Below are positions 2,767-28,924 of a stretch of DNA of 64,000 nt, in pieces; positions within the stretch are counted from its first letter, which is position 1, and the number at the start of each line of letters is the position of its first letter. Under the pieces are notes generated by a model. That model searched no databases and had not been told where the DNA came from. It was given only the letters and a program-made list of their open reading frames with translations. Origin of the DNA: an uncultured bacterium. GTDB taxonomy: Bacteria > UBA8481. The position numbers were made by a program, and so were the translations under genes. The stretch covers positions 45,217 through 109,216 of the forward strand of contig CAZCME010000013.1 in assembly GCA_964499705.1 (NCBI GenBank). The letters are read 5' to 3'.

Positions 2767-2807
2767 ATCGCCGGGGGGCGGAGACGTTCTTCGCCTCCCG
2801 CGGTTCC

Positions 2808-4866: not shown

Positions 4867-4943
4867 CCCTGATGATCATATCACGTTCTTTATCGCTCCA
4901 AGTCAACATGGCGCGAGCGCGGAGAATCCCTATAATCGACCCG

Positions 4944-6753: not shown

Positions 6754-6963
6754 TTGTTAGATTTTTTACCGGGAGGCTATTTTTACAGGCATATGGAACA
6801 ACATGGTGAGAATCGGATGAGCGAAGATGAGAAAACCATCCTCAAGTTCGACTCCGGAGCGGGAGGATTCGAGTACATGATCATCATCCTCGTCGTTCTC
6901 GCCGTTTTCATGCTCCTGGCGGGCGGTTACTTCCTCTGGACGTGGCAGCCGCCGGGCACCTGA
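6754..6963 (+). CDS. Hypothetical small membrane protein
   Basis: ORF 6754..6963 with a single hydrophobic helix (MIIILVVLAVFMLLAGGYFLW); weak support. Confidence 0.3.
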   Translation: MLDFLPGGYFYRHMEQHGENRMSEDEKTILKFDSGAGGFEYMIIILVVLAVFMLLAGGYFLWTWQPPGT

Positions 6964-8129: not shown

Positions 8130-8163
8130 AGGAGAAGTATGAAGTATGAAATACTTCGTACTT

Positions 8164-11031: not shown

Positions 11032-11046
11032 GTTCCGTCTTCCTCT

Positions 11047-12162
11047 CTAAATGTTGAAGAAATACTCGGGGATCGCCACGAGGTATTTCAGGTTGAATGT
11101 CCAGCGCAGGTACATCTTGATCGGAATGAGGATCGCCCACAGGAGCATCACGATGAAGGTGCTGTAGCGGATCGGCCCCAGGCCGGCGTACATCTTCTTC
11201 AGCCAGGTCTTCGCCAGGAGAGGCGGCATCACCGCGAAATATCCTCCGACGAATAGAATGCCCCACATCTCCCGCAGGAGAATGTTCTTCGGCAATCCGA
11301 TGTTCAGGCCCTTCATGTAGATGTATTCGGACAGGTTGACGTTCGTCAGCGCTTCGAGCTTATGCAGGTCCCACGCCTCGAACGGGCCGAAGAAGTTCCA
11401 GTTCGGGCCGCGGAGAAATGTCCCGATGAAGATGAGGTAGACCCAGAGGATGAGCCAGCCGAACATGAAGAGCGAGATCGCAAGGCGCCGCTGCTTGTAG
11501 CTGTAATACCCGACGCCCTTTTCATTGTTGTCGATGAAGGGAATCGCGGCGATGCCTCCGAGGACAAGCGTCGGGAGGATGACGCCGGCGATCCAGGGAT
11601 CGAAATAGACGAGAAGCTCCTGGAGACCGAGGAAGTACCACGGGGCCTTGGCCGGATTGGGCGAGAGCGTCAAGTTCGCGGGTTCCTCCACGGGTGCCGG
11701 GAGATAGATCGACCAGACGATGAGAAACGCGGTGCAGAGAATAAGGGAGATGAACTCGATGTAGACGAGGTCCGGCCAGACAAGCACTTTATCCTTCGGA
11801 TCATGGATTTCGGTCGGCTTCATCCCGCTCGCGAGCTTCGCGTCGTTCTCCACGGCCTGCTTCATCGCGAGCCAGAGGAAGAAGTATGTCAGGAATGCGA
11901 GCCCCGCGATCGGCACGTTATCGGGCTTTGTCAGAATGAGGCTGCAGTTCTCGTCGGCCAGTCCAATGAGAAAGAAGAGCGTCATCAGGGCGAAGACCGT
12001 GACCGCGCCCTTGTTGGTCCAGAGGAACGGGATCTTCAGCCGTGCGTTCCACTTCTCGAACCAGTCGTTCGGCGGAAAGACGAAGAAGAGACCGCCCGCC
12101 AGGACTGTGAATGTAATGCGCGGGTCCGAGAGGAAGTTGACGAATTCCTTGAGGTAATGCAT
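11047..12162 (-). CDS. Cytochrome b C-terminal domain protein (subunit IV-like, split cytochrome b)
   Basis: 371-aa polytopic membrane ORF containing PWYFLGLQELL, which resembles the conserved PEWY region of cytochrome b C-terminal domains; start overlaps the stop of the cytochrome b N-terminal gene by 1 nt. Confidence 0.75.
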   Translation of the reverse strand: MHYLKEFVNFLSDPRITFTVLAGGLFFVFPPNDWFEKWNARLKIPFLWTNKGAVTVFALMTLFFLIGLADENCSLILTKPDNVPIAGLAFLTYFFLWLAMKQAVENDAKLASGMKPTEIHDPKDKVLVWPDLVYIEFISLILCTAFLIVWSIYLPAPVEEPANLTLSPNPAKAPWYFLGLQELLVYFDPWIAGVILPTLVLGGIAAIPFIDNNEKGVGYYSYKQRRLAISLFMFGWLILWVYLIFIGTFLRGPNWNFFGPFEAWDLHKLEALTNVNLSEYIYMKGLNIGLPKNILLREMWGILFVGGYFAVMPPLLAKTWLKKMYAGLGPIRYSTFIVMLLWAILIPIKMYLRWTFNLKYLVAIPEYFFNI

Positions 12163-12974
12163 CAGGTCGGCCCCGATATTCCGCCGTCCTTGCGGACGCG
12201 CCAGAAGTGCACCGCCATCATGATCATGATGACAAAGGGAAGACCGATGCAGTGGAGCACATAGAACCGCAGGAGCGTCGCTTCGCCGACGAACCTACCG
12301 CCGAGAAGCGCGAACCGGACGTCGGAACCCTGGTGGACGAAGTTGATGTCACCGAGCGCCAGGAACGCCGTTCCCGGGCCCTGCGCTCCCATGAACGGTG
12401 TCGCACCGCCCATGTTGGATCCGACCGTGATGGCCCAGATCGCGAGCTGATCCCACGGCAGGAGATAACCCGTGAAGGAGAGAAGCATGGTGAGAAGGAG
12501 GAGAACGACGCCGACGACCCAGTTGAATTCGCGCGGCGGTTTGTACGAACCGGTCATGAAGACACGGAACATATGGAGCCAGACGGTGATGACCATCAGG
12601 TGAGCGCCCCAGCGGTGAATCTCGCGCATGATCCCCAGCGGCACCTGTTCGCCCAGGTCGACGATGTCACCGTAGGCGTATTCGACGGTCGGGCGGTAAT
12701 AGAACATGAGGAGAATACCGGTGATGGTGAGGACGAGGAAGATGAAGAACGTGAGTCCTCCCATGCACCAGGTGTATTTCACCTTCACGGCGTGAGTCGG
12801 GAGCTGGACGGGATGGAGGTGCAGAAAGACGTTGTTCAAAACGACCATCATCCGGTCGCGCCGCGTGGAGGGCGGGCCGCCGCCCTGGCGAAAGAGCGAC
12901 CGCCAGATTGGCGAATCGGCGATATACTTCCACACATCCGCCGGAGTGATCATCTTCTTCTGTTCGTCAGCCAT
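12162..12974 (-). CDS. Cytochrome b N-terminal domain protein (b6-like)
   Basis: 270-aa ORF with haem-ligand-bearing helices ([31 protein letters not shown]) typical of cytochrome b/b6. Confidence 0.85.
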
Positions 12975-12994
12975 CGTTTACCTTCCTGTTGTCA

Positions 12995-13897
12995 TCAGAC
13001 GCGGAGATAGGACTCGGGATTTTCCCATTCGCCCTTCTCCTGCTGAAACTTTCTCGTCTTGTCCACGAAGATCTGCCCGTCGTCCGCCATGACAATCTTG
13101 TAGCGTTCGAGCGGACGGGGGGCCGGCCCCTCGAAGTTGATGCCCGTTCTGCGAAATCCGCTGCCATGGCACGGGCACTTGAATTTTCCTTCGCCGGCCA
13201 GCCAGTTCGGCGTGCATCCCAGGTGCGTGCAGACCGTGGAGAGCGCGAACATGTTGCTGCCATCGCGGACGATCCAGACGCCGTATTTCTCCTTCCAGCG
13301 CTCGGAGACACCGGCGTCGTATTCGTCGGGGAAACCGGCTTTGAACGATTGCGGCGGCTCGAAGAGGACATTCGGGAACATGAAGCGCTGCATCATCGCG
13401 AGCGAGCCGGCGGTCGCGGCGGAGAAGGCGAACCAGCCGACGGAGAGCGCGGATATGAACGCGCGGCGGTCGACGCCTTCACCGTCGGGCATGAGGGCGG
13501 CGACGGGAGTCTTCTTCGGATCGAATTCGATGGCGTGAGCTTTCCCATAAATCTGATCGCGAGCGATGACGACCTGGCCGGGACCGATCGAAGCGGGAAG
13601 ATATTCGAGCGGCTTGGCTTCAGCAGGTTTCGCAGCAGCCGCAGGAACCGGTTTTGCAGCGGCGACAGCGGGTTTGGCAGCGCCGGCTGTCGCGGGCGTT
13701 GCTGCGGTGGTTACGGGCTTGGCGGCGGGCGAGGAGGATGCCGCCGATACGGACGCGGCTTTTTCAATGACGGGCGCGGAGCCTGCGACGGGCGAGGCCT
13801 TAGGAGCCACTTTCACTGCGGGCTTCTGGACTGAGGCGGCGGCTTCTTTTTTTTCCGGCTCCACGGAAGGAGCCGACTCTCTGTTTGATTCCGTCAT
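12995..13897 (-). CDS. Rieske [2Fe-2S] protein of the bc-type complex
   Basis: C-terminal CTHLGC...CPCHGS Rieske boxes; twin-arginine/TM anchor DRRAFISALSVGWFAF. The ~135 N-terminal residues are Ala/Pro/Lys-rich low complexity; an alternative start at Met 13492 (MPDGEGVDRRAF...) would remove it. Confidence 0.8.
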   Translation of the reverse strand: MTESNRESAPSVEPEKKEAAASVQKPAVKVAPKASPVAGSAPVIEKAASVSAASSSPAAKPVTTAATPATAGAAKPAVAAAKPVPAAAAKPAEAKPLEYLPASIGPGQVVIARDQIYGKAHAIEFDPKKTPVAALMPDGEGVDRRAFISALSVGWFAFSAATAGSLAMMQRFMFPNVLFEPPQSFKAGFPDEYDAGVSERWKEKYGVWIVRDGSNMFALSTVCTHLGCTPNWLAGEGKFKCPCHGSGFRRTGINFEGPAPRPLERYKIVMADDGQIFVDKTRKFQQEKGEWENPESYLRV

Positions 13898-14017
13898 ACG
13901 TAGCTGGATACACCTTGCGCGACTGAATTTAAGCGTCGGGGATTGTAATCATCCCATGTGAGTTTAATCAAGTGAAAATCTACACACACTCCTTTAATTT
14001 CTCTCCTCATTCGTCCT

Positions 14018-14926
14018 TCACCTGCCGGATGCTTCCATCGCGGCATGGCGAACTTTCATGTTCGGATCCTCTTTCGCCAATCTAGCGGTGGCCGCCTGTA
14101 AATCCGTATCCTGCAGCCCTTTGGACACTTCGATCACGACCTTGATCGCCTCATTCACTTCCTCGGAGCTGACCTCGGGAAATTCAGAGTAATAGTTCCG
14201 ATCCAGCAATTTCAGGAGCTGATCTTTCCCGGAAGGGTCCTTCATTTTTGCCAGCGCGATAGCCGCATCCCATCGGATGTTCGGCTCCGCATCATTAAGG
14301 GCTCCGCGCAGCACCTCGATCGAGGAAGAGTCGCCGATATTCCCGAGAGCGATGATCGCATTCAGGCGAATCCTCCCGTCCGGATGCGCGCTCGCCGTCA
14401 TGAGCGGCGGCACGGCGCGCGGATCGCGGATCGTCCCGAGCGCATGAATGAGGGAAGGCTTATTCTCATCGGGATCTTTTCCCAGAGCCGCGATGAGCGG
14501 CTCCACAAATGCGATGTTGCCCGTTCTTCCCATCGCCAGAGCGAGGTATTGCCGGACACGATTGTCGTCATGTTCCGCGTGTTCGAAAGCCGCGATCATC
14601 TCCGCGACAAATCGTTCTTCCTTCGGAACCAGCTCGGAATTGGCGAGAATCCGCGACAGCTCGAACGCCGCCTGCCAACGTTTCGTGGCCGCGCCCGTCT
14701 TGATGTCGTTCAGGTAATCGTATGTGGTGTGCTGCTCCATGGTGATGATCCGCACGATGAGATAGATGAGCACTGCGAAGACGGCGATGAGAAAAGGGAC
14801 AACGAAGAAGGAATGCACGATGACGCGGAGCAGGGACGGTTTTTTTTCAGGAGACGCGTTCGCCTGAGGCAGACTGGCCTGGGACACGTCGGACGTCGGG
14901 GGACCGGATGAGTGGGAATTTTCCAT
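14018..14926 (-). CDS. HEAT/PBS-lyase-like repeat protein with N-terminal membrane anchor
   Basis: 302-aa ORF; TM helix near the N-terminus, then repeated alpha-helical units (LIAALGKDPDENKPSLIHALGTIRDPRAVPPLM..., AIIALGNIGDSSSIEVLRGALND...) of HEAT-like type. Confidence 0.6.
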   Translation of the reverse strand: MENSHSSGPPTSDVSQASLPQANASPEKKPSLLRVIVHSFFVVPFLIAVFAVLIYLIVRIITMEQHTTYDYLNDIKTGAATKRWQAAFELSRILANSELVPKEERFVAEMIAAFEHAEHDDNRVRQYLALAMGRTGNIAFVEPLIAALGKDPDENKPSLIHALGTIRDPRAVPPLMTASAHPDGRIRLNAIIALGNIGDSSSIEVLRGALNDAEPNIRWDAAIALAKMKDPSGKDQLLKLLDRNYYSEFPEVSSEEVNEAIKVVIEVSKGLQDTDLQAATARLAKEDPNMKVRHAAMEASGR

Positions 14927-15045
14927 CGATGTGATTGCGGATTAAAACGGCCTGCGCGGATCAAGTCAATGCTCATGAAAATCCTGCGAGAGTCAAATCG
15001 GGTCAAGAGCGCCGTGATAACTATCTCCCTGCCCCCGGGCAGGAA

Positions 15046-15492
15046 TCAGGCGGCGGGAATGTTCAGAGCAGGACCGCCGTCCTCGGGGAAATCAGCGCGG
15101 CGTGAATTGGCGTCGTAGAGCATCTCGTAGATCCGGTGTGTCATCGGATTGGCTCCCTGGTTCGCCGCGTTCTTGGCGTAATCGTCAAGCACCATGGAGC
15201 GGAACGTCTCCTCGGTGGTGCCGCCGTCGAGAAATCCCGTCCGTTGCACGGCCTTGTCCATCTCCTTGAACATCATGCCGAAGAGGATGGAAACGAACTC
15301 GGAAGCGGTCTCCTTCATCTTCACTTCCTGCGGCGTGGATGCGGATTCGAAGAGCTTCCTGGACTTGTCGATCGAGCGGATGACCTTCTGGCCGAATTCC
15401 GGAGCGGAATTCCGGAGGTTTTCGAGTTGCTGCTCGCGGGCACGGTCGGCGGTCATGTCGCCGACCTTCAGGAGGGAGCCAAGACCAATCAT
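15046..15492 (-). CDS. Flagellar rod-binding protein (FlgJ N-terminal domain-like)
   Basis: ORF 15046..15621 trimmed to Met 15492 to avoid overlap with flgI; ASEFVSILFGMMFKEMDKAV...GGTTEETFRSMVLDDYAKNAA resembles rod-binding domains. Start uncertain (Met 15456 also possible). Confidence 0.55.
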   Translation of the reverse strand: MIGLGSLLKVGDMTADRAREQQLENLRNSAPEFGQKVIRSIDKSRKLFESASTPQEVKMKETASEFVSILFGMMFKEMDKAVQRTGFLDGGTTEETFRSMVLDDYAKNAANQGANPMTHRIYEMLYDANSRRADFPEDGGPALNIPAA

Positions 15493-15577
15493 AAAGCCGG
15501 ACCGACGACCCCCACGGATGGGGGAACGGCCTTGGCCGGCAGTGCCGCGAGAGTCCAGGGATGGACGGAGCGGCACA

Positions 15578-16699
15578 TCAGATGAACTCCAGTTCCGCGT
15601 GCAGTGCTCCGGCGGAGGCAATCGCCTGCAGCACCGCGATGATGTCCTTCGGCGTGGCGCCGACGGCGTTCAAGGCGCGGACCAGCTCCCGGACATTCGT
15701 GCCCTCGGGAAGCGTCACCGTATTCTCCGGTTGCTCCTCGATCGTCTGCTCCGTGGCGGCCGTGGCTCCGCCGCCCGTGCCCGCATTCGCGGCGGTCGTA
15801 CTCTTGATCGAGAGCGACAATTCGCCGTGCGAGATCGCGACGGTGGAAATGCGGGCGTTCTCTCCGAAGACGATCGTACCCGTCCGCTCGTTGATGATGA
15901 TCTTCGCCACCGCGTCGGGCTGCAGAAGGATATCCTCGATCTTCGCGATGAAGGGGACGGGATTATCGCGATAGTTGGCCGGCAGGATGACTTTGACGCG
16001 CTCCGCGTTTTCAGCGCGCGCCAGGGGCGGACGAAAGGCCGCGTTGACCGCGTCCGCGAGGCGCGAGGCCGTCGCGAAATCGGGGCGCTTCAGGACCCAG
16101 GTGAGCGAACCGTCCGCGTCGATCATGTCGGATGCGATGGAATTTTCGACGATCGCGCCGTTCGGAATCCGCGCCGTCGTCTTGTGGCTCTCCGCCGTCC
16201 GCGCTCCGGCCGCCCCCGACGAGAGCGATGCGCCGCCGCCCAGGGAGATCTGGCCCTGCGCCACGGCGTAGACCTTGCCGTCGGCTCCGACGAGCGGAGT
16301 CTGGAGGAGCACTCCGCCTTCGAGACTCTCAGCGTCGCCGATGGAGGAGACCGTGATATCAAGCTTCTGGCCGGCGGAGATGAACGGAGGAACCTGCACC
16401 GTCACGATGACCGCCGCGAGATTTTTCGGATCGAGCGTCTGCTGATCGAGCCGGATGCCGAACTTGCCGAGCATCGCGAGGACGGACTGGATCGTGAAGC
16501 GCGAACGGGCCGAATCACCCGTGCCCCGAAGGCCGACGACGATGCCGTAGCCGACGAGCTGGTTCTCCCGGACACCCACGAGCTTGGCGACATCCTTGAT
16601 GCGAACCGCCGGAGCGGAAGAAGCGGAGATGCCAAGCGCCATGATGAGCGCTAGAGCGGTGCCGCGATGGGCGGCGTGCAGAATGCGTGAGAGGCTCAA
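15578..16699 (-). CDS. flgI: Flagellar P-ring protein
   Basis: 373-aa ORF with signal peptide and overall FlgI-like sequence (IKDVAKLVGVRENQLVGYGIVVGLRGTGD...LGGGAS...); start overlaps the flgH stop by 4 nt. Confidence 0.9.
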   Translation of the reverse strand: MSLSRILHAAHRGTALALIMALGISASSAPAVRIKDVAKLVGVRENQLVGYGIVVGLRGTGDSARSRFTIQSVLAMLGKFGIRLDQQTLDPKNLAAVIVTVQVPPFISAGQKLDITVSSIGDAESLEGGVLLQTPLVGADGKVYAVAQGQISLGGGASLSSGAAGARTAESHKTTARIPNGAIVENSIASDMIDADGSLTWVLKRPDFATASRLADAVNAAFRPPLARAENAERVKVILPANYRDNPVPFIAKIEDILLQPDAVAKIIINERTGTIVFGENARISTVAISHGELSLSIKSTTAANAGTGGGATAATEQTIEEQPENTVTLPEGTNVRELVRALNAVGATPKDIIAVLQAIASAGALHAELEFI

Positions 16700-17505
16700 A
16701 AGAAGATCCCCGTCACGAAGGCGAAGGCCTTTTCCAGGAAGCTGGGGCGCTCGTCGTTCGTATAGCGGAGCGTCCCGTTCACCTTGATCGAAGCGTTCGC
16801 GACGGCATTGGACGAGACGATGTTGCTCGCGGAGACGTCATCAGGACGGATGTGGCCCGTCAGTTCGATGAGCTGTTCCTCGGAGTTCACGCGCATGATC
16901 TTGCGGGCGATGACCTGGAGATTGCCGTTCGGAAGAACGTTCAGGACTTCCGCGGCGACCGTCGCCGTCAGGGACGTGCGGCGGTCGGACTGGTTATCGC
17001 TGGAGAGCTTGCCCTCGTAATCGAGATTGATGAACGGCACGAACCGGCCGAAGAGATTCTTCGTTCCGGCTCCGTTGCCCGTCGGAGCGACCGTGCCATC
17101 AGCAGTCACTTCCTTTTCGCGCTCCGTCTTCCACTGGTGATTGGCGTCCGTCGTCTCGTCGATCCGGATCGTGATGATGTCGCCGGTCTTGAAGGAACGC
17201 TTGCCGGCGTTGAAGAGCCCGCCGCCGTTGCCCTGCTGCCACAGCGACACGGCGGACGCCTGGAAAGTCAGTGCGACGACGAGGCTCATGCCCATGATGA
17301 CCTTGGCCGCCAGTCCCGGCCCCCGCTTGCGGCGACTGCGCTTTCGCTTCTGGGGTGTCGGGTTCGCGGAAACGGGACGCGCCGATGGCGCCACGCTCGG
17401 CTCGCTCTGAAGCGCGGGCGCCGAATCGCCGACGAACGCGATCGCGGGCTGCGAAAACAGATCGAGCTGCAAGGGTTCTGCGTTTGTTTCTTCGTTCCTG
17501 TTCAT
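16696..17505 (-). CDS. flgH: Flagellar L-ring lipoprotein
   Basis: 269-aa ORF; C-terminal region (GDIITIRIDETTDANHQ...VLPNGNLQVIARKIMRVNSEEQLIELTGHIRPDDVSASNIVSSNAVANASIKVNGTL) is FlgH-like. N-terminal start may be internal. Confidence 0.85.
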   Translation of the reverse strand: MNRNEETNAEPLQLDLFSQPAIAFVGDSAPALQSEPSVAPSARPVSANPTPQKRKRSRRKRGPGLAAKVIMGMSLVVALTFQASAVSLWQQGNGGGLFNAGKRSFKTGDIITIRIDETTDANHQWKTEREKEVTADGTVAPTGNGAGTKNLFGRFVPFINLDYEGKLSSDNQSDRRTSLTATVAAEVLNVLPNGNLQVIARKIMRVNSEEQLIELTGHIRPDDVSASNIVSSNAVANASIKVNGTLRYTNDERPSFLEKAFAFVTGIFF

Positions 17506-20355: not shown

Positions 20356-20961
20356 ATGACCATCCGTCCTCCCGCCTTCGAACGCCTCGTCGATGCCCTG
20401 TCGAGATTCCCCTCGATCGGCCCCAAGACTGCCGCGCGGATCGCGCTCTGGCTTTTGAACCAGCCGCCGGAAGCCAGCGAGCGGATCGCGCGGGCCATCA
20501 CGGAAGCGCGGCAGACAATCAGAAGATGCAGGATCTGTTTCCAGTACGCGGAGGACGAGCTGTGTCCGGTCTGCGCCGATCCGGCGCGGGACAAATCCAT
20601 TCTTTGCGTCGTGGAGGAAGCCGTGGACGTCTGGAGCTTTGAGCGGACCGGGCGATATCGAGGAACCTACCATGTCCTCGGCGGCGCGATTTCTCCATTG
20701 GACGGAATCGGTCCCGACGAGCTGACAGTCCAGGCTCTCTTGGAACGAGTCGCGGATCCCGCGCAGGGAATAGCGGAAGTCATTCTCGCGACCGATCCCG
20801 ACACGGAGGGCAACGCCACCGCGCTCTTCATCGCAGACCACCTGCCGCGGAGCCGCGTCAAGGTAAGCCGACTCGCGCACGGGCTGCCCGTGGGCGGCGA
20901 ACTAGCCTATTCCGACGATGCGACTCTGGCGGAAGCTCTGGCGGGTCGACGGATTTTATGA
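20356..20961 (+). CDS. recR: Recombination protein RecR
   Basis: 201-aa ORF with C4 zinc finger (CRICFQYAEDELCPVC) and Toprim-like region (LCVVEEAVDVWSFERTGRYRGTYHVLGG); divergent from flgF. Confidence 0.9.
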   Translation: MTIRPPAFERLVDALSRFPSIGPKTAARIALWLLNQPPEASERIARAITEARQTIRRCRICFQYAEDELCPVCADPARDKSILCVVEEAVDVWSFERTGRYRGTYHVLGGAISPLDGIGPDELTVQALLERVADPAQGIAEVILATDPDTEGNATALFIADHLPRSRVKVSRLAHGLPVGGELAYSDDATLAEALAGRRIL

Positions 20962-21142
20962 ATCGACACCGGAAGCGAAACTGGCGGACGCAAGGGCCTG
21001 CGCACTTCTCCCTGGGCCTCTGCACCGAGTGGGCTCGATCTCTTTCGTCCGCAATTTTCATGAGACGAGGAGACACGCGTCTTGTGCGCCGGTTTCACCT
21101 CATATAGGATCGATTCTCGTTCAGCAGGGAGGAAAAAGTAGA

Positions 21143-23584
21143 ATGAGAAACAACGCTTCATGTTCGACGTTCCGAATTCGATATTTATTTCTGTCAGGTT
21201 ACTTACTCGCCCTATTCGCAGCGAGTGATACATCCGCCGCCGCGCTGATCTTTCCGGATTCGCCAGGACCGGTTGCCGACAAGGTATTCGGGCAGCCGGG
21301 TTTCATAACCAACACCGCCGGAACATCTCTCGATCAGATGTCTGGCCCTTCTGATATTCTTTTCGACTCCGTCGGTCGGATGTACATTGCGGACCTGAAC
21401 AACGACCGTATTCTAATCTTCGCAAACCAAGACGATACAAGGGCCGATTTTGTGATAGGCGGGCCAATCAGTGGCGCGTTGCCAGGTCTTACCGGGGTTC
21501 CTTCTGGCGCGGGGGCCGATAGGCTGAATGCTCCAACGTTTCTCGCTCTCTTTGACGGCCCGGACACCTCCGTGTTGTTTGTATCCGAACAGTTGAACCA
21601 GAGGGTTCTCGGTTACATCTTAAGGCAACCTGGGTTTTCATTTCTCAGCGACACGCTGGCAGACTATGTCTTTGGGCAACCCACGTTTGATACAAACGTT
21701 ATTTCCAACAATGGCACAGGGGCCTCGTTACTTTCTGCCGTTGGACTTCGGAATCCGGCCGGACTTTCAATCCTGGATACTGGAGCTTCCACGATTTCGC
21801 TTTTCGTTGCGGATAGAACCAACTTGCGTGTTCTCCGGTATGACATCAATAAATCCCTTTTTGGTCTCCCCAATAGCAGCATGGATACAATTCCGGATGA
21901 GTTGTGGGGACAACCCGATTTTATGACTTCCGAACTAACTTTTGCCGTTTCGCGAGAAATCATTAGAGGGCCGCTCGGTGTAGCTTCAACGCCGGACAGG
22001 TTATTCATTGCCGCGGTACAGCCGAGGGTCGTAGTCGAATCTCTCACCGATCCCGACACTTCTTTTGACGGAGTTTATGGTCAGCCCGATTTTACATCTC
22101 AGACTGCCGGAAATGACACCACCTCGCTCGCTTCGCTTTTCTTATCGGTGGCGATAGGTCCAACAAAAAATGTATTAGCGATCATAGACAGGCAAAATCA
22201 TCGTATTCTACTGCACACCGATACTTCAGGCGCAGATATCATTCCCGATGATATTATCGGCGATACGAACTTCGTGGCACCCGTTCTTACCGGACCAAGC
22301 GCACAGTCGCTGCGTCTCCCAACCGCAGCTTATTTCCGATCCGACTCTGAAGTTTGGGTCACCGATTTCGGCAATAATCGCGCCCTGAGATTTGACCGCG
22401 GCTCCAACAACACGCCTGTTGGAAATAATGTGAACGTGACGGAATCGTTTGCAGTCCAAGGATTCCTGGTTACTGTGAAATTCGCATCAGTTTCGCAGGC
22501 GGGCAACACCGAGATCAGGTTACTCGACTCGATCCCACCGCTCGGAACAGATTTCCGCCTGACGAGCGATTCACTCTGTCCATCTTCCGATAATATGATC
22601 TTCCAGATCGGAACGACTGCGATCTTCACAACGGCTCAAGTGACGATCAATTTCAATGATAATGCCTGCCTGAAAAGCCTTTCGGTTCCCAATAAACTGA
22701 GCCTTGAGATGTTGCATTTTGACCTAATCCCGCCAGACCCGGACACCGTGACGTTCGGTAATGCTAATCCGGGAACAAATGAGATCAAAAGCATCGATCT
22801 CACCACGCTTTCGCCCTTTGTCGTCGCGGAGAAGATCTTTCGCGATCTCACACCGCCGACTATCACAATCGAAATCGAGAGCGGACATGTTTTTCATAAC
22901 TACGACGAGCCGGTTTTCAAGCCCAAGTCATTTGTGACGCTCAGCGCGACGGACAGCTCCGGAGTTTCCACGTTTGAGTGGCGGATCGATGATGGCGAAT
23001 TCCAAAGCTACTCCGAACCGTTCCAGATTGGCGAGAGCGTCGCGCGATCGAAGGGGGCGAATCCGAAGTCTGAAACGCACGTTCTGACAGCGCGAGCAAG
23101 CGACGTCTTCGGTAATACAGAGGAAACGCATCTCATATTCCGACTTGCGTCAAACGGACAACCGCGCGTTGATCGCAGCGTGCAGAACCTCACTATCCAA
23201 AGGGGAACTCTTCACATTTTCTCGATGCTCGAAAGCATTCAATTCGACCTCGGAGAGGAGATCGTTCTCACCATTGTATATGAGAATTCGCAGGATGTTT
23301 ACCGGCCTAACAATCCAAACCCGACGCCCGATGGAGGACAAACGATCGTCAGCATTTTAGATTCCCTTGGTCGCGAAGTCCATTCGCAAAGACGACACCC
23401 CGATCCTGATCCCGCGAAAGTCACGATCGGTATGGGCGAGAAATTAACCTACTCCTATTCCGTCATTTCGAAGATGTTTCCAAATGGTCTGCCTGCGGGT
23501 CGATACACCCTTGTGATTCAGTTCCGCGGCGAGTTTGCCGGACATCATGCATTCGAGGTAATGGACGATGACAGCGTCAAATAA
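21143..23584 (+). CDS. Secreted NHL-repeat beta-propeller protein with C-terminal beta-rich extension
   Basis: ORF 20918..23584 trimmed to Met 21143 (GGGAGG Shine-Dalgarno 10 nt upstream; signal peptide MRNNASCSTFRIRYLFLSGYLLALFAASDTSAAA). Repeated GQPGF/GQPTF/GQPDF and (A/S)DxxNxR(I/V)L motifs; gene is visibly lower in GC than its flanks. Confidence 0.75.
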   Translation: MRNNASCSTFRIRYLFLSGYLLALFAASDTSAAALIFPDSPGPVADKVFGQPGFITNTAGTSLDQMSGPSDILFDSVGRMYIADLNNDRILIFANQDDTRADFVIGGPISGALPGLTGVPSGAGADRLNAPTFLALFDGPDTSVLFVSEQLNQRVLGYILRQPGFSFLSDTLADYVFGQPTFDTNVISNNGTGASLLSAVGLRNPAGLSILDTGASTISLFVADRTNLRVLRYDINKSLFGLPNSSMDTIPDELWGQPDFMTSELTFAVSREIIRGPLGVASTPDRLFIAAVQPRVVVESLTDPDTSFDGVYGQPDFTSQTAGNDTTSLASLFLSVAIGPTKNVLAIIDRQNHRILLHTDTSGADIIPDDIIGDTNFVAPVLTGPSAQSLRLPTAAYFRSDSEVWVTDFGNNRALRFDRGSNNTPVGNNVNVTESFAVQGFLVTVKFASVSQAGNTEIRLLDSIPPLGTDFRLTSDSLCPSSDNMIFQIGTTAIFTTAQVTINFNDNACLKSLSVPNKLSLEMLHFDLIPPDPDTVTFGNANPGTNEIKSIDLTTLSPFVVAEKIFRDLTPPTITIEIESGHVFHNYDEPVFKPKSFVTLSATDSSGVSTFEWRIDDGEFQSYSEPFQIGESVARSKGANPKSETHVLTARASDVFGNTEETHLIFRLASNGQPRVDRSVQNLTIQRGTLHIFSMLESIQFDLGEEIVLTIVYENSQDVYRPNNPNPTPDGGQTIVSILDSLGREVHSQRRHPDPDPAKVTIGMGEKLTYSYSVISKMFPNGLPAGRYTLVIQFRGEFAGHHAFEVMDDDSVK

Positions 23585-23729
23585 TGGCAGTGAAACTTCT
23601 TACATAACAATTGCGGACCAGATAGATCCTGTATTATACTGGTTTCGGATAAAGGGCATCAGTCGTTACTGACCCTTATCCTTGTTCCAGGATTCCATTG
23701 ACTGTGAACAATATTGCATCGGAGCTGAA

Positions 23730-24788
23730 ATGAAGCGCGTCGAACCCGCCTTGGTCAACGTGAAATTCGCGAAATTCCCGACGCCAACTGCTGCCGTTCT
23801 TGAGCTGACGAACAGATGCAACGAACAATGCATTCACTGCATTCGCGAATCACCCGATCTACGATTCGACGACGAACTTGCGACCGCCGAATGGCTGAAG
23901 GTCGTTGATGATCTTGCGGACATCCGTACTTTTTCCGTATGTCTGACGGGTGGAGAGTGCACGATCCACCCCGGGTTCCTGGAAATCATCGACCGATGCC
24001 GAAGCCATCGCATTAATGTGTCGATAAAGACAAATGCACTTTCGTTGGCGCGAATCGCGCCGATGCTAGCGCGCAAGGGAGTCGGATTCATTGAAATCTC
24101 GCTGTACGGCGCGACACCGGAATCGCACGATCGGTGCACCCGGATTTCCGGTTCATTCCAGCGTCTCGTCGAGGGTGTCAAGGCGGCGAGAAAAAACGGT
24201 ATTCCAGTCTCCATGAACGCGATTGTCTTTCGATGGAATGCTCATGAGGCTCTTGCGATGCGCCGGCTTGGCCAGGAACTGGATTGCCCGATCAAACGCG
24301 ACTTCATGCTCTCGACCACCGATCTTGGCAGGCACCTCGATCTGGAATTGGTGACGTCTGCCCAGATTCGAGAAATCGAGTCGATCTGGCCCATGAACAC
24401 GCTGCCGGGCGCGCAGAACCGTCTTTCCCGGGTAAAAATCTGTACTCAGGGCATGAACACAGTCTGCGTAACCGCGCGTGGCGAAGTACTTTCATGCGTC
24501 ACGATCCGCAAGCCGCTCGGCAACGTCAGAAAAAATGGCCTCGCCGATACCTGGCTCACCACGACGGGAGGTCACAGCGGTGCAGCCCGGCGAGCGCATG
24601 ACGTGGACTACGGGAATTTCACTCGCTGCGAAGCGTGCAAGCATCTTCCGGTCTGCAGCGTCTGCCTGGGACAAAACTTCGCCGCCACCGGCAGCTTTTA
24701 CGAACCTCCCCTTGAAAGATGCTTTATTACCATGTCATTATTCGGTAACAAGGAAGGGATGGAAAATGGAAAGGAAGTCCATGCGTAA
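23730..24788 (+). CDS. Radical SAM enzyme with C-terminal SPASM/twitch-like cysteine cluster (putative peptide maturase)
   Basis: ORF 23682..24788 (TTG) trimmed to ATG 23730 with GGAG upstream. CNEQCIHC (Cx3Cx2C) radical SAM cluster near the N-terminus; C-terminal CEACKHLPVCSVC auxiliary-cluster motif. Confidence 0.8.
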   Translation: MKRVEPALVNVKFAKFPTPTAAVLELTNRCNEQCIHCIRESPDLRFDDELATAEWLKVVDDLADIRTFSVCLTGGECTIHPGFLEIIDRCRSHRINVSIKTNALSLARIAPMLARKGVGFIEISLYGATPESHDRCTRISGSFQRLVEGVKAARKNGIPVSMNAIVFRWNAHEALAMRRLGQELDCPIKRDFMLSTTDLGRHLDLELVTSAQIREIESIWPMNTLPGAQNRLSRVKICTQGMNTVCVTARGEVLSCVTIRKPLGNVRKNGLADTWLTTTGGHSGAARRAHDVDYGNFTRCEACKHLPVCSVCLGQNFAATGSFYEPPLERCFITMSLFGNKEGMENGKEVHA

Positions 24789-24996
24789 GTTATATGAAAA
24801 GCCGGAGCTGATCTGCTACAGCGGAATCAAGGTCGGAGTCTATTCCGTCTCCAACTCCAACGCCAATTGTCAGGCGGATTGCGCCGCCACTGTCTGTTCA
24901 TTTGTCGCGACAGCGTCGGCGGCTCCATGCGACACCTGCGATAACGACAATTCCCAGTGCGCTACCGGCCTGAATCCCGTGGTGGACTGCCTCTAA
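24766..24996 (+). CDS. Cys-rich small peptide, candidate RiPP precursor (76 aa, 8 Cys)
   Basis: ATG 24766 preceded by AAGGAAGGG about 8 nt upstream; overlaps the last 23 nt of the radical SAM gene in another frame. Sequence MERKSMRKLYEKPELICYSGIKVGVYSVSNSNANCQADCAATVCSFVATASAAPCDTCDNDNSQCATGLNPVVDCL. Confidence 0.5.
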   Translation: MERKSMRKLYEKPELICYSGIKVGVYSVSNSNANCQADCAATVCSFVATASAAPCDTCDNDNSQCATGLNPVVDCL

Positions 24997-25045: not shown

Positions 25046-25705
25046 ATGCCCTACTACGTCAGCATCGGTGGACAGAATTACGGACCGGCCGAGCCGGACG
25101 AGCTCCAGAAATGGCACAAGGCGGGTTCCTTCAATCCCACTGACTTCGTATGGAATGAAGACGCCAACGAGTGGACCGAGGCGGCCCGGTTCGCGCCGCT
25201 GGCGCACCACTTCGATACGGCGGCGGCACCGGCCGTGGGCATCGAGGAGATCGACGAGCTTCCGCGCGAACAGAGCGCGCTTCAGCCGGCCGCGGGTCCC
25301 GAAACCGAAAGCTGGTGCGCGAACCATGAGACGAACAGAGCGACGGCGGTCTGCCCCCATTGCCGGAAATCCTTCTGCGCCCAATGCATGGTCTCGACGG
25401 GAGGAATCTCCGTCTGCATCGACTGCGTCAGCTCCGAAAAGGGCTCCGCGACTAAAAGTCCGAAGCGCACGGTCCTTCTGATCGGCGCCGTCATCGTCCT
25501 CATCGGCATCGCCGTCGGATCCTATCTCTTCTTCGCTCCGAAGCCCATCGAGCAGCCGGCCACGCCGGAGCTGATCGAACTGAAGCGAGGAGATGCGCCG
25601 GCCTCTCTGGCGGCGCCGGACAAGGCCGCCCCTCCCGCTGAAACTCCGGACACATCCGATTCGTCGGCCGGAGCCGTTGCTCCTTCAGATACTTCCACAC
25701 CATGA
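25046..25705 (+). CDS. DUF4339-like N-terminal domain / zinc-finger / single-pass membrane protein
   Basis: N-terminus MPYYVSIGGQNYGPAEPDELQKWHKAGSFNPTDFVWNEDANEWTEA; Cys/His cluster CANHETNRATAVCPHCRKSFCAQCMV...CIDC; TM helix VLLIGAVIVLIGIAVGSYLFF; Pro/Ala-rich C-terminus. Stop overlaps the glnD start (ATGA). Confidence 0.6.
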   Translation: MPYYVSIGGQNYGPAEPDELQKWHKAGSFNPTDFVWNEDANEWTEAARFAPLAHHFDTAAAPAVGIEEIDELPREQSALQPAAGPETESWCANHETNRATAVCPHCRKSFCAQCMVSTGGISVCIDCVSSEKGSATKSPKRTVLLIGAVIVLIGIAVGSYLFFAPKPIEQPATPELIELKRGDAPASLAAPDKAAPPAETPDTSDSSAGAVAPSDTSTP

Positions 25706-28020
25706 AAGGTTTCATCGCGCCGCTCATTCCTCCAAGCGAGCCCGAGGAGCTGGCACTCTGGGGCTCCAATCTCACGAAAGCTCTCACCGACCTGACGGAG
25801 AAGCTGACCTCGCCGGCCTTTGCCGAGCTCGATCCCGCGCGCGTCAGCGCATACGCCGTCGGCGGATACGGGCGCCGCGAGCTCGTTCCCTTCTCGGACG
25901 TCGACATTCTCTTCGTCGTGAAAAAGGACAAGGAAGTCGACCTCTCGAAGTCGATCTCCTTCCTATGGAGCCTGGGACTGAAACCGAGCGTCCTCATCCG
26001 GAATCTCGACAACCTGAAGGCCGCGGTCGCTGACGATCTGCTCTTCGCAACGACTCTCATCGACGCGCGGCACCTTTTCGGTTTCGAAGCGGAGCTCCTG
26101 TCCGGCCCGAAGACGTGGATCCGGTCGATCCGTCCGAAATTCGCGGAGGAGCACGAGAAGGAGAGAATGATCCGGCACCTGAAATATCTCGGCGCGGGCC
26201 ATCAGGAGCCCAACGTCCGGGATGGTCGCGGAGGCCTGCGCGATCTCCAGGATCGCCGGTGGATCGGCGCCATGGACAACTGGGAGAAACGCGACGAGGC
26301 GCTCTCCCCGGGGCAATGGGAGGATTACCGCAGGCTCCTCGCCGCCCGCGCGATCATCCACTGCGCGCTGGAGAAGCGCGAGGACCGGCTGCTGCTGGAA
26401 GAACAACAGACGATCAACGACTGGCTCGGATGGCCCATCGGAAAAAATTTCGCGAAGGAAACGCTCAGCACGATGAAACGCGTCGTCCGATCCTTCGATC
26501 CGGCGCCGCCCGACCCCGAATCCCGCGTCACCATCACGGAATTTCTGAACCGCATCGGAGCCGCAGACGAGAAGCCGCCGGCGACTTACCTGCGAAGGTG
26601 CGACGAAACAGGCGACCTGGGCCGACTCATCCCGGAATGGACGCGCATCGAATGCCTCACGAGGAACGATCCGATCCACCTCTTCACGCCCGAGGAACAT
26701 ACGCTCCGGGCCGTGGAACACCTGGATGCGATGCTCGCCGAAGGCCGCTTCCCGATCGACATCGCCGCCCTGAAGCGCCGCGATCTCCTGACGCTCGCGC
26801 TCCTCTTCCACGACATCGGCAAGGGATCCGGCAGGGACCACGAGGTGCGCGGACGGGAAATCGCGGAGGAGACGATGGAACGATGGGGTTATCCGCCGGG
26901 CGACATCGCGCTCGTCGCGTTCCTCGTGAACGAGCATCTGCTTCTCTCGTCGAACGCGTTCATGCGGGACGTTCACGATCCGAGCCTCATCCATGATGTC
27001 GCGAAGCGGATCGGCGACATCGAAAAGCTGACGATGCTCTATCTCCTAACGGTCGCCGACATCCGTGCCGTCAACGTGGAGTCGTTTTCGGAATGGAAAG
27101 CGAACCTCCTCAATACTCTGACGCGCCGCCTGTACCGCCAATGCCAGGCTTACCTCCCGACCGCCAAGCTCGCGGCGGACATACTCCGGCGTCGTCACGA
27201 GGCCGTGCTGCGACTCCCAGGGATGGGAGGAGTGTCGCGGGAGTCCACGGAGGGACGGAGCGACCCGCTCATGGCCAGCGATGCTCTCGACATGGACATC
27301 GAACGGCACTTCGCCAACATCGACGCGCGGTACGCCCTTGCTCATTCGCCCGAGCAGATCGCCAGCCACATCAAGCTGATCCCGAGATTGACGGCCGAGA
27401 AGACGGTGATCGAGCACCACTCCCATCCGGAAATGGGCTACACGGAAGTCCTGGTCATCACTCAGACCCATCACGGCCTCTTCGCCGAGATCGCCGGCAC
27501 CCTGTCCGCGAAGGGCTTCAATATTCTCGAAGCGGACATTTCCACCCGGACCGACGGCATCGCGATCGACTCCTTCAAGGTGAGCGACACATTCGATCCG
27601 GACCGCTGGAAATCCTTCGACCGTGACCTGATGCGCCTTCTTTCTAAGGAGATTTCGGCGGCGGCGCTGATCGCGGAACGCATGCCCTACGCCCGCCGGA
27701 ACGACCGCAAGGGGTCAGCGGCCGGCCGCAAGAAAACCGCGATCCTCATCGATAACCAGAGTTCCAAGACAAACACCGTCGTCGAGGTGATGGCGCCGGA
27801 CGAGATGGGCATTCTATACAGAATCGCCAAGACATTTCGTGATTGCGAGATAGGCATCAATTCGGCTATCGTATCGACAACATCGGATCAGGTAGTCGAC
27901 GTCTTCTACGTCACCACCCGGTCCGGAGAGAAGATCACGGACAAGACGGGCATGGAACGAATGGAATACCTGTTGCGCCAGATTATTTCGACCGAGAATT
28001 CAGGAGCCGCCATAGCATGA
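25702..28020 (+). CDS. glnD: [Protein-PII] uridylyltransferase/uridylyl-removing enzyme
   Basis: 772-aa ORF with nucleotidyltransferase motif (AVGGYGRRELVPFSDVDILFV), HD domain (LLFHDIGKG) and C-terminal ACT-like repeats. Confidence 0.85.
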   Translation: MKGFIAPLIPPSEPEELALWGSNLTKALTDLTEKLTSPAFAELDPARVSAYAVGGYGRRELVPFSDVDILFVVKKDKEVDLSKSISFLWSLGLKPSVLIRNLDNLKAAVADDLLFATTLIDARHLFGFEAELLSGPKTWIRSIRPKFAEEHEKERMIRHLKYLGAGHQEPNVRDGRGGLRDLQDRRWIGAMDNWEKRDEALSPGQWEDYRRLLAARAIIHCALEKREDRLLLEEQQTINDWLGWPIGKNFAKETLSTMKRVVRSFDPAPPDPESRVTITEFLNRIGAADEKPPATYLRRCDETGDLGRLIPEWTRIECLTRNDPIHLFTPEEHTLRAVEHLDAMLAEGRFPIDIAALKRRDLLTLALLFHDIGKGSGRDHEVRGREIAEETMERWGYPPGDIALVAFLVNEHLLLSSNAFMRDVHDPSLIHDVAKRIGDIEKLTMLYLLTVADIRAVNVESFSEWKANLLNTLTRRLYRQCQAYLPTAKLAADILRRRHEAVLRLPGMGGVSRESTEGRSDPLMASDALDMDIERHFANIDARYALAHSPEQIASHIKLIPRLTAEKTVIEHHSHPEMGYTEVLVITQTHHGLFAEIAGTLSAKGFNILEADISTRTDGIAIDSFKVSDTFDPDRWKSFDRDLMRLLSKEISAAALIAERMPYARRNDRKGSAAGRKKTAILIDNQSSKTNTVVEVMAPDEMGILYRIAKTFRDCEIGINSAIVSTTSDQVVDVFYVTTRSGEKITDKTGMERMEYLLRQIISTENSGAAIA

Positions 28021-28042: not shown

Positions 28043-28924
28043 GTGAAGGTCCATTTCTACGGTGTCCGAGGTTCCCTGCCGACACCCGGCCCCTCGACGG
28101 TAAAGTACGGGGGCAACACATCCTGCGTCGAGGTCAGCGTTCCTGAAAGCGACAACATCTTCATCATCGACGCCGGCACCGGGATCCGCGAGCTCGGCGG
28201 CAAGCTCGCTTCCAAGCGCGACAAGGTCATCAACCTCTTCATCTCCCATACGCACTGGGATCACATCCAGGGCTTTCCCTTCTTCGTGCCGATCTACATG
28301 CCCCATCACAAGGTCAAGGTCTTTGGCCCCACCAACGATTCGCTCGACCTCTCCCTGCACGACGTCCTCACAAAGCAGATGGACTACTCCGTCTTCCCCG
28401 TCCGCTACGGCGAGCTCCAGGCGACGCTCTCGTACACGGCCATGAAGAAGGAGACGCTGATGATCGGCGAAGTCGAAGTGACGGCGCGCCCCCTGAATCA
28501 TCCCGTCCTGACGCTCGGATATTCCATCGCTCACAAGGGAAAGAAGGTCGTGTATCAGTCGGATCACGAACCTTTCTACAATCTTTTTTCCGACGGCGCG
28601 GAGGAGGCGGATTCCTTTATCAACGAGTTGAACCAGGAGATCGTGGATTTCGCCGCCGGAGCGGATCTTCTGATCGCCGACGCGATGTACACGGCCGAGG
28701 AATACGACAAGCACCGCGGCTGGGGACACTCCTCCGTTCTGCACGTCCTCGACCGCGCCATCGCCGCCAAATGCCGGAAGCTCGCCATCTTCCATCATGA
28801 CCCCCTGCACAACGACGCGTTCATGGATAAGATCTACGAGGATCTCATGGCGGAAAAAGCCAGGCGGGATGCGGGCGACCTGGAAATCTTCATAGCGGCG
28901 GAAGGTCTCGAGATTACTCTTTGA
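28043..28924 (+). CDS. MBL-fold metallo-hydrolase
   Basis: 293-aa ORF with the metallo-beta-lactamase motif ISHTHWDHIQGFP and downstream His/Asp ligands. Confidence 0.75.
   Translation: MKVHFYGVRGSLPTPGPSTVKYGGNTSCVEVSVPESDNIFIIDAGTGIRELGGKLASKRDKVINLFISHTHWDHIQGFPFFVPIYMPHHKVKVFGPTNDSLDLSLHDVLTKQMDYSVFPVRYGELQATLSYTAMKKETLMIGEVEVTARPLNHPVLTLGYSIAHKGKKVVYQSDHEPFYNLFSDGAEEADSFINELNQEIVDFAAGADLLIADAMYTAEEYDKHRGWGHSSVLHVLDRAIAAKCRKLAIFHHDPLHNDAFMDKIYEDLMAEKARRDAGDLEIFIAAEGLEITL

Follow-up and report, generated by a model that had tools for sequence, protein, structure and literature searches.

The window (the whole stretch of DNA analyzed, 64,000 nucleotides of a Candidatus Hydrogenedentota MAG) carries the following plus-strand genes in order: recR (20356–20961; TIGR00615, 230 bits); a gene for an NHL-repeat exoprotein of 813 aa (21143–23584, stop codon included); a gene for a radical SAM (rSAM)/SPASM enzyme of 352 aa (23730–24788); and an ORF for a Cys-rich precursor peptide of 76 aa (24766–24996), which overlaps the rSAM stop by 23 nt. 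The NHL gene model is supported by the ORF and its translation; by the Shine-Dalgarno motif GGAGG, 10 nt 5′ of the ATG at 21143; and by identity to a deposited protein, P0001, titled 'hypothetical protein AAB229_05485, Candidatus Hydrogenedentota'. A longer ORF starting at 20918 was rejected: it runs into the recR 3′ end, its extension has no homology, and both the homologues and the deposited annotation begin at 21143.

The first 33 residues of the NHL protein (21143–21241, plus strand; MRNNASCSTFRIRYLFLSGYLLALFAASDTSAAA) read as a Sec-type signal peptide whose n-region is basic, whose hydrophobic core spans 14 residues, and whose c-region is rich in Ala. Cleavage probably occurs after the SAA/AAA run. 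The AF2 model shows aa 5–33 as one helix, and the P0001 homologues have equivalent N-termini that align only with the 21143 start. The initial annotation had proposed an 813-aa secreted protein with a signal peptide, and the ORF, the ribosome-binding motif, the N-terminus, and the modeled helix all bear this out.

Residues ~40–420 (21260–22402, plus strand) form a six-bladed NHL β-propeller, identified by motifs, AF2, Foldseek, and the Pfam NHL model (PF01436), whose gathering threshold is passed (26.7 bits; cut-off 20). The motifs GQP(G/D/T)F and (A/S)DxxNxR(I/V)L had been noted as recurrent, and so they are, at five positions each: GQP(G/T/D)F or GDTNF at aa 50, 178, 256, 313, and 373; (A/S/T)(D/E)xxNxR(I/V/A)L or a near variant at aa 83, 148, 223, 349, and 407. 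Six motif repeats can be discerned in the propeller. The earlier figure of at least four blades was right as to the propeller and can be replaced by the six modeled by AF2 over aa 40–420, where pLDDT is mostly >90. Foldseek aligns the propeller with the NHL domains of TRIM71, Thin, and TRIM2 (TMt 0.84–0.87). Its neighbors by structure and by sequence belong to the binding type of NHL domain: TRIM71, Thin, Brat, and the Pizza designer proteins, the last derived from the PknD sensor domain. The propeller is the part common to P0001 and its close relatives, P0002 and P0003; no paralogue of the NHL protein is encoded within the 64-kb window. Several candidate identities were set aside. ScyF, the scytonemin NHL/PEP-CTERM protein (NF035926), scores 23 bits over 54 residues (cut-off 350), and the C-terminus of the NHL protein carries no PEP-CTERM; PAL, lactonase, and streptogramin lyase likewise find no support in Pfam or NCBIfam scores or among the top 50 structural matches.

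Distal to the propeller, aa ~421–813 are modeled as three tandem β-sandwiches (dedicated AF2 run, nine sequences, pLDDT 75; the full-length run modeled this part poorly, owing to a misaligned, repeat-rich alignment). A β-rich C-terminal region of ~300 aa ending in a His-rich tail had been described. The region is β-rich, and extends over ~390 aa; the tail is not His-rich, since the last 30 residues include two His and the entire protein 12 in 813 residues. (A GHH motif is common to the NHL protein and P0002.)

Domain 1 (aa ~423–590; 22409–22912, plus strand), delimited by homologues and AF2, is a shuffled module: aa 423–577 share 61% identity with the FG-GAP protein P0020, and 52% with P0136 (a non-NHL repeat protein, read as Kelch-like), and domain 1 is 41–43% identical to its counterparts in P0157 (read as a β-helix protein), P0159, and P0167. 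Domain 2 (aa 597–663; 22931–23131, plus strand) is Ig-like and may be of the OmpL47 type, from NCBIfam model NF047446 (39.5 bits over these residues, just below the cut-off of 40) and Foldseek; the same stretch matches repeated domains of many giant multi-repeat proteins. Domain 3 (aa ~683–813; 23189–23581, plus strand), again delimited by homologues and AF2, is common only to P0002 (33%) and to P0134 (56% over aa 568–808), which has no propeller. (When the C-terminal 394 aa were used as the query, only P0020 and one weak match were retrieved; P0134 and P0136 came from an exhaustive representative search.) The best Foldseek matches for the C-terminal domains are the SiiE BIg, RbmA, Sap S-layer, and GhpA domains, at the level of fold only (9–13% identity, whole-chain TM ~0.2–0.3, interdomain orientation unmodeled). 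A search for T9SS CTD, PEP-CTERM, LPXTG, and lipobox signals detected no recognized anchor, and no lipobox Cys lies past the hydrophobic core. The last two domains are present also on a propeller-less exoprotein, so attachment to the envelope through them is probable.

This architecture has counterparts among secreted NHL-repeat proteins with Ig-like/FN3 stalks (PF01436; the PknD sensor/Pizza type), which share the six-bladed propeller, the repeat motifs, the signal peptide, and the C-terminal Ig-like domains. The window protein differs from these in that its subfamily is narrow, with two relatives at >40% identity among 5.8 × 10⁹ proteins; in that its stalk includes two domains, 1 and 3, with no Pfam match; and in having no recognized anchor. 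The stalks of adhesins, biofilm scaffolds, and S-layer proteins (SiiE BIg, RbmA, Sap, GhpA; NF047446) are alike in their tandem β-sandwiches, here spread over the C-terminal 390 aa.

The adjacent enzyme combines Pfam Radical_SAM and SPASM domains, and belongs to a small, uncharacterized family of ~15 members (13 relatives at E ≤ 1e-40 among 5.8 × 10⁹ proteins). All of its NCBIfam matches fall far under cut-off; the best is ScmE, at 105.9 bits (cut-off 400). Each rSAM gene in the family is followed by one for a homologous peptide, with the leader Y-x-K-P-E-L-T-C-Y and the core SPSN...CQADC...PCDxCD. The pair resembles SynChlorMet and other two-gene rSAM/SPASM cassettes, in which a Cys-rich peptide is likewise encoded beside a short SPASM maturase that has no N-terminal RRE extension. 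It differs from SynChlorMet in its low ScmE score and in its peptide, which matches no Pfam or NCBIfam family. A weak ScmC-like neighbor is present in L013/L014. Cassettes of the L002 type have an ABC exporter gene directly 3′ of the peptide gene; the neighbors at the window locus include no exporter, leader protease, or heme subunit. Literature searches found nothing on rSAM enzymes from Hydrogenedentes, nor on any pairing of an rSAM peptide with an NHL repeat protein.

The cassette lies within a conserved block, recR-rSAM-peptide-GYF_2-glnD(-MBL), seen in seven lineages: the window, L001, L004, L005, L016, L017, and L019. In three of these (L004, L005, and L016), recR lies directly 5′ of rSAM, with a gap of 86–149 bp. 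Situated between recR and glnD and outside any island, the rSAM-peptide pair belongs to the core of a Hydrogenedentota clade and has been inherited vertically. Since the block is conserved without the NHL gene, the pair does not need that gene; the minimal system comprises two genes.

The NHL gene, by contrast with this ancestral locus from which it is absent, is a later, compositionally foreign insertion of 2.8 kb between recR and rSAM. Its GC content is 0.51 (GC3, 0.55), compared with 0.55 for the rSAM and peptide genes (GC3, 0.63 and 0.70) and 0.61–0.64 for the flanks (GC3, 0.73–0.80). Likewise in L001, the NHL gene has a GC3 of 0.60 against ~0.80 for its surroundings, and the rSAM genes there look native. 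An AT-rich spacer of 145 bp (23585–23729; GC 0.42 by composition) separates the NHL and rSAM genes; consensus scans scored no terminator-like or promoter-like site in it, which weighs little either way. The three genes had been assigned to one low-GC island on a single strand. They do share the strand, but strong deviation is confined, in essence, to the NHL gene.

The closest relative is L017 (amino acid identity of 82% for glnD and 95% for MBL). Nucleotide homology between the two starts exactly at the rSAM ATG, 23730, and the slot occupied here by the NHL gene holds, in L017, a toxin-antitoxin pair (PhdYeFM/PIN). Behind the inserted pair, 48 nt of the recR 3′ end are duplicated, which demonstrates that this end of recR is an integration site. 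No such att-like duplication surrounds the window NHL gene (local alignment scores of 18–20; shuffle maximum, 25). The gene is bracketed by an imperfect inverted repeat of 26 nt, with 81% complementary arms at 21037–21062 and at 23603–23628, the latter beginning 19 nt past the NHL stop. The 10-mer core of the repeat, GTCCGCAATT, is found in the 64 kb only at these two arms (0.19 expected), for a repeat that is short and was picked after the fact. Neither L001 nor any of the other loci contains this core, and the L001 NHL gene has no equivalent repeat around it.

Is the NHL protein a partner of the modified peptide, as was initially suggested? Co-occurrence was evaluated starting from the cassette and starting from the NHL protein, with conflicting outcomes. 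On the cassette side, 11 lineages were distinguished: the window, L001, L002, L004, the L005 group, L006, the L013 group, L016, L017, L018/L019, and L020. An NHL neighbor is present in three of them, and even L019, at ~80% nucleotide identity to L001, is without the L001 NHL gene. This refutes the idea of an obligate binding, processing, or receptor partner of the rSAM-peptide pair.

From the NHL side, the association is positive. Among the 5.8 billion proteins searched, the only close homologues are P0002 (52% identity) and P0003 (44–45%). Both were retrieved through NHL similarity alone, and both are encoded within ~3.3 kb of a cassette of this rSAM family, so that every known subfamily member (P0001, P0002, and P0003; a very small sample) adjoins one. 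Around the next-best match, P0006 (35%), a distance of 10 kb includes no cassette. By our own estimate, a random gene in a genome of ~4 Mb would fall within 4 kb of a given locus with a probability of roughly 0.002. The NHL protein is therefore linked non-randomly to the cassette, as an accessory that is not required and may be an optional partner. (No well-characterized, unrelated orthologue was found that would point elsewhere.)

The arrangement of the genes varies: the NHL gene lies upstream on the same strand in the window; downstream of the peptide gene on the opposite strand in L001, where a 1-nt frameshift in a T run interrupts it; and 3.3 kb off in L002, where it follows a Wzy_C gene in a divergent operon and the genomic context has a GC content of 0.46. 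Neither order nor strand relative to the cassette is conserved, and no operon layout is common to the three. The three proteins come from two unrelated genomic contexts; the window and L001 genes share a single chromosomal gap, which leaves L002 as the one strictly independent case.

These results suggest, with a confidence slightly above even, that the NHL protein is exported by the Sec route and functions at the envelope as a modular binding protein without enzymatic activity, encoded by a foreign insertion and optionally linked to the rSAM-peptide cassette. Once the signal peptide is removed, the six-bladed propeller would serve as a ligand-binding head. It would be carried on the three β-sandwich/Ig-like domains, in the manner of adhesin, biofilm scaffold, and S-layer protein stalks, with the last two domains presumably attaching the protein to the envelope. 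In the most economical mechanism, the cross-linked peptide would be exported and then bound by the propeller, either on the cell surface or within the periplasm. Direct peptide binding by the propeller is plausible but unproven; an enzymatic propeller would be compatible with the structural model taken by itself, and ligand binding is a prediction. As for the link to the cassette, the chances that it is real but optional seem about evenly divided, and this is more likely than coincidence. Against a link of any kind are the eight of 11 cassette lineages that do without the gene; the opposite strand and the frameshift of the L001 copy, and the divergent operon of the L002 copy; the integration site at the recR 3′ end; the window locus, which encodes neither exporter nor leader protease, such that its peptide may stay cytoplasmic; and the size of the subfamily, three known members.

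Coincidence is a rival reading, of less than even probability. Here, the NHL gene would be one among the many shuffled surface-protein genes of these bacteria, inserted beside recR at a hot spot for recombination or integration, and its proximity to the cassette would be functionally meaningless. The site evidently accepts mobile DNA, as witnessed by the toxin-antitoxin module and the recR duplication in L017; in composition, the NHL gene is foreign to its host genome in the window as in L001; an imperfect inverted repeat brackets it in the window; its protein shares domains with exoproteins that have no rSAM neighbor, for example in L003; and most cassette lineages lack it. Yet chance insertion leaves unexplained why both close homologues adjoin cassettes of the same rare family. 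Moreover, the L001 gene sits at a different position in the block, the L002 context is unrelated, and no duplication of the recR end is seen in the window.

The logic of quinohemoprotein amine dehydrogenase (QHNDH) provides a more specific, mechanistic, and rather doubtful version of the partnership initially suggested, in which the NHL protein would act outside the cytoplasm as a receptor or scaffold subunit dedicated to the matured peptide. In the QHNDH system (QhpA/B/C/D/E/F/G), a peptide cross-linked by an rSAM enzyme is exported to become a tightly bound subunit of a complex in the periplasm, of which the beta subunit, QhpB, is also part (PMC7876137). The window locus is similar in encoding an rSAM/SPASM enzyme and a small Cys/Asp-rich peptide of ~80 aa beside an exported β-propeller protein. 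QhpB is a seven-bladed propeller. The co-location of all three subfamily members with a cassette fits this analogy, as do the conserved Cys/Asp-rich peptide core (CQADC, PCDxCD), such as would be expected for thioether cross-links, and the ABC exporter gene directly after the peptide gene in L002-type cassettes. The differences are considerable, however. The window locus has no heme subunit (QhpA), QhpE protease, QhpF exporter, or QhpG; its peptide core has no Trp, which the quinone cofactor (CTQ) requires; its propeller is a six-bladed NHL type; and no qhp family is among the best 25 rSAM matches listed. The propeller gene is missing from most cassettes, those of the nearest relatives included, a conserved operon order is never seen, and the L001 copy is frameshifted.

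An alternative along the same lines, by analogy and in our view unlikely, is that the NHL gene might be a horizontally mobile, optional receptor module: the propeller, on its adhesin-like stalk, would capture the exported, thioether-cross-linked peptide and hold or display it at the envelope, in a propeller-peptide complex that recalls the logic of QHNDH, and gains and losses of the gene would not be tied to the cassette.

Finally, a tailoring or processing enzyme, with a catalytic propeller acting on the exported peptide in the manner of a PAL-like lyase (PAL is peptidyl-α-hydroxyglycine α-amidating lyase), a lactonase, or a streptogramin lyase, is highly improbable: some six-bladed NHL or related propellers are indeed enzymes, and automatic annotation labels many distant homologues 'sugar lactone lactonase YvrE' or 'streptogramin lyase', but no enzyme family scores on the NHL protein (Pfam finds NHL only, and ScyF falls short as above), neither PAL nor lactonase is among the top 50 structural matches of the propeller, the few His and only three Cys, taken as counts, argue against a three-His zinc site, and the cassette is independent of the NHL gene.

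The NHL protein itself is of an ordinary kind, that of secreted NHL-repeat proteins carried on Ig-like stalks. Of greater use is what was learned about the locus. The rSAM-peptide core is vertical and the NHL gene a later insertion, which redirects studies of the cassette to two genes. If the co-location holds in more genomes, then the NHL protein would provide a rare clue that the peptide acts outside the cytoplasm, together with a handle for pull-down.

The gene at 21143-23584 (+) is real: its ATG lies 10 nt past a GGAGG, and its 813-aa product is identical to a deposited protein, P0001 ("hypothetical protein", Candidatus Hydrogenedentota MAG). A longer open reading frame starting at 20918 was rejected; it runs into the end of recR, and its 75 additional residues are unmatched in homologues. 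The initial annotation had claimed a signal peptide, and the N-terminus indeed reads as a typical Sec signal, in which a basic n-region is followed by 14 hydrophobic core residues and an Ala-rich c-region. Residues 5-33 form a lone helix in the AlphaFold2 model. Neither a lipobox nor a known C-terminal sorting signal was found in this NHL protein.

At least four NHL blades had been proposed. The motifs listed are present (GQP(G/T/D)F or GDTNF at residues 50, 178, 256, 313, and 373; DxxNxR(I/V/A)L-type at residues 83, 148, 223, 349, and 407), and the Pfam NHL model scores 26.7 bits against a threshold of 20; AlphaFold2 corrects the count to six, in a propeller spanning residues ~40-420 with pLDDT mostly >90. 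Its top PDB matches by Foldseek are the NHL domains of TRIM71, Thin, TRIM2/3, and Brat, together with Pizza designer propellers (target-normalised TM 0.76-0.87), and a PDB sequence search returned the same families. The top 50 structural matches include no enzyme propeller, whether amidating lyase, lactonase, or any other.

The C-terminal region is beta-rich, as described, but measures ~390 rather than ~300 residues, and the His-rich tail attributed to it dissolves on inspection: the last 30 residues contain only two His. Misalignment in the repeat-rich alignment left this part poorly modelled in a first AlphaFold2 run. A second run on residues 420-813 (mean pLDDT 75) gave three Ig-like or beta-sandwich domains, at ~421-585, 597-668, and 683-807. 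Structurally they are closest to domains that serve surface proteins as stalks or scaffolds (SiiE BIg, RbmA, Sap S-layer, GhpA, and macroglobulin-type); the NCBIfam OmpL47-type model gives the middle domain 39.5 bits, just under its cut-off of 40.

When residues 420-813 were searched exhaustively with HMMER, these domains turned up in other settings. Residues 423-577 have counterparts of 52-61% identity in P0020, where they follow an FG-GAP propeller, and in P0136, a non-NHL repeat protein read as Kelch-like; P0157 (read as a beta-helix protein), P0159, and P0167 match them at 41-43%. Residues 568-808 recur at 56% identity in P0134, a protein without a propeller, and the Ig-like middle domain matches repeats of many giant proteins. 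These alignments show the C-terminal domains to be shuffled modules. Such sharing and shuffling mark the NHL protein as a modular exoprotein of the adhesin or surface type; it belongs to a known kind, the secreted NHL-repeat surface proteins. (On contig L003, at 1-16997, large secreted repeat proteins are clustered: one of >3500 aa, and FG-GAP, SBBP/DUF7948, and NHL members.) The FG-GAP member of that cluster is 61% identical to residues 423-577, which suggests recent domain shuffling among the surface proteins of these organisms.

The NHL gene lies between recR (20356-20961, +) and a two-gene cassette: a 352-aa rSAM/SPASM enzyme (23730-24788, +) and a 76-aa Cys-rich peptide (24766-24996, +) whose gene overlaps the rSAM stop. 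There follow a GYF_2/B-box membrane protein (25046-25705, +), glnD (25702-28020, +), and an MBL-fold hydrolase (28043-28924, +); the GYF_2/B-box gene and glnD overlap by 4 nt. No curated family fits the window rSAM (the highest-scoring model, ScmE, reaches 105.9 bits and has a cut-off of 400), and its own family is small, with 13 relatives at E<=1e-40 among 5.8 billion proteins. The enzyme is short (~350 aa), and has no N-terminal RRE-sized extension, since the rSAM domain begins near residue 25. A homologous peptide of 70-82 aa follows every rSAM relative that could be placed on a contig. Its leader reads Y-x-K-P-E-L-T-C-Y-x5-G-Y-x-S-P-S-N, and is presumably akin to the YxxPxL recognition motif of lasso-peptide leaders; its core reads C-Q-A-D-C ... 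P-C-D-x-C-D, and no NCBIfam or Pfam model covers it. Enzyme and peptide constitute an uncharacterised family. Whereas the window has one rSAM gene, two tandem paralogues (~51-55% identical to the window enzyme) precede a single peptide gene in L001 (12667-14786), L013 (7838-9828), L018 (4144-6221), and L019 (2-1239), all loci from other lineages.

Twenty loci, gathered through the rSAM family and then scanned by tblastn, show how the cassette is placed. The block recR-rSAM-peptide-GYF_2-glnD(-MBL) is common to seven lineages (the window, L001, L004, the L005 group, L016, L017, and L019, whose contig begins within the cassette and leaves its recR end out of view). In all seven, the gene right after the peptide gene encodes the GYF_2 and B-box-like zinc-finger membrane protein, which is absent from the non-syntenic cassettes L002, L013, L018, and L020; it could reflect plain synteny or be a lineage-specific cassette partner. 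Near cassettes outside recR-glnD, envelope-polysaccharide genes recur, for Wzy_C-type ligase/polymerase proteins and for Wza-like and Wzc-like export proteins (L002 7249-9951, L018 1413-2462, L014 3815-7513).

Co-occurrence in other genomes had been named as a check on the proposed partnership between NHL protein and modified peptide. From the cassette side it fails: only 3/11 cassette lineages have an NHL neighbour. L004, L005, and L016 have the same block with a recR-rSAM gap of only 86-149 bp. L017, the window's closest relative (amino acid identity 82% for glnD, 95% for MBL, and 75% for rSAM), has a PhdYeFM/PIN toxin-antitoxin pair in the recR-rSAM slot, and its nucleotide homology with the window begins exactly at the rSAM ATG. 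L019, ~80% identical to L001 in nucleotides, has a peptide-GYF_2 gap of 116 bp where L001 has its NHL gene. The NHL gene is likewise missing from cassettes outside the block: L013-15, by Wza/Wzc-like genes; L018; and L020, with an ABC exporter. Ancestrally, the cassette had two genes and no NHL gene beside it.

Base composition agrees only in part with the single low-GC island first described. NHL gene and cassette share a strand, and GC is low at the NHL gene and spacers, but it is mostly the NHL gene that deviates (GC 0.51, GC3 0.55): the rSAM and peptide genes both have GC 0.55, with GC3 of 0.63 and 0.70 respectively, and flanking genes have GC 0.61-0.64 and GC3 0.73-0.80. L001 shows GC3 of 0.60 in its NHL gene and ~0.80 in the flanks and the two rSAM genes; in L004, L016, and L019 the cassette is host-like in composition. 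From the contrast in the window and L001, the NHL gene looks acquired in both genomes, and the cassette native. The window's lowest-GC kilobase (0.476, at 36-37 kb) encodes a multi-pass membrane protein (36552-37496) and adjoins a 340-aa reading frame (34827-35849, -) that by eye resembles an IS200/RayT-type (Y1) transposase (HVLNR ... PNHFH motifs). The sole RNA gene detected in the window is tRNA-Val (CAC), at 60093-60165.

Around the NHL gene lies an imperfect 26-nt inverted repeat (21037-21062 and 23603-23628), its arms lying 81 nt ahead of the start codon and 19 nt beyond the stop; the 64 kb contain no further copy of its 10-nt core, GTCCGCAATT. The repeat may be what is left of a mobilising element, or due to chance. 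In L017 a second copy of 48 nt from the recR 3' end follows the toxin-antitoxin pair (L017 1-115 and 831-878; score 51, shuffle maximum 24); it encodes SDDARLAEALAGRR... and resembles an att-type target duplication. The recR 3' end is thus marked by L017 as an integration site.

From the NHL side, co-occurrence holds; the test thus gives opposite answers from its two sides, neither of which cancels the other, and the proposed partnership is partly supported. Queried by itself, the NHL protein has just two close relatives, P0002 and P0003, both beside cassettes; the cassette played no role in their retrieval, so there is no ascertainment bias. P0002 (52% identity) is encoded in L001, another genome, within the corresponding recR...GYF_2 gap, downstream of the peptide gene on the opposite strand and beside the duplicated rSAM. 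(One base missing in a TTTT run, L001 9960-9975, breaks its frame into products called as 169 and 808 aa, either an assembly or sequencing error or a pseudogene.) P0003 (44-45% identity, propeller only) is encoded on L002, a contig of GC 0.46 without recR or glnD synteny, 3.3 kb from a family rSAM (44% identity) and peptide (49%), in a divergent operon immediately after a 900-aa Wzy_C gene. No rSAM lies within 10 kb of the next-best homologue, P0006 (35%).

A hot spot for insertion at the end of recR would account for the NHL gene's position; L017 demonstrates insertion there, and this explanation covers the window, but it leaves L001 and L002 uncovered. Chance alone is hard to credit for the cassette-adjacency of a small subfamily in three arrangements and two contexts: we estimate a probability of ~0.002 that, in a genome of 4 Mb, a random gene sits no more than 4 kb from a given locus. 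The window and L001, sharing a chromosomal gap, may not be independent; L002 is. An obligate processing, binding, or receptor role is refuted, because the cassette does not need the NHL protein, whose gene was added late and is mobile, cargo beside a conserved two-gene core. The subfamily's cassette-adjacency, together with the hot spot's failure to cover L001 and L002, therefore favours an optional link.

In the simplest mechanism for such an optional link, the propeller would bind an exported, cross-linked peptide. What chiefly stands against this is the absence of an exporter and of a leader protease from the window locus; an ABC exporter occurs only in cassettes of the L002/L020 type. An intracellular product would also fit a two-gene, vertically inherited cassette. 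The QHNDH partner subunit QhpB is a beta-propeller. After export, the rSAM-cross-linked peptide of QHNDH becomes part of a periplasmic complex (PMC7876137). This system is a precedent for an exported rSAM-cross-linked peptide, although its defining features are all absent at the window locus. The locus is more informative than the NHL protein itself: its conserved core is the cassette, with just two genes.
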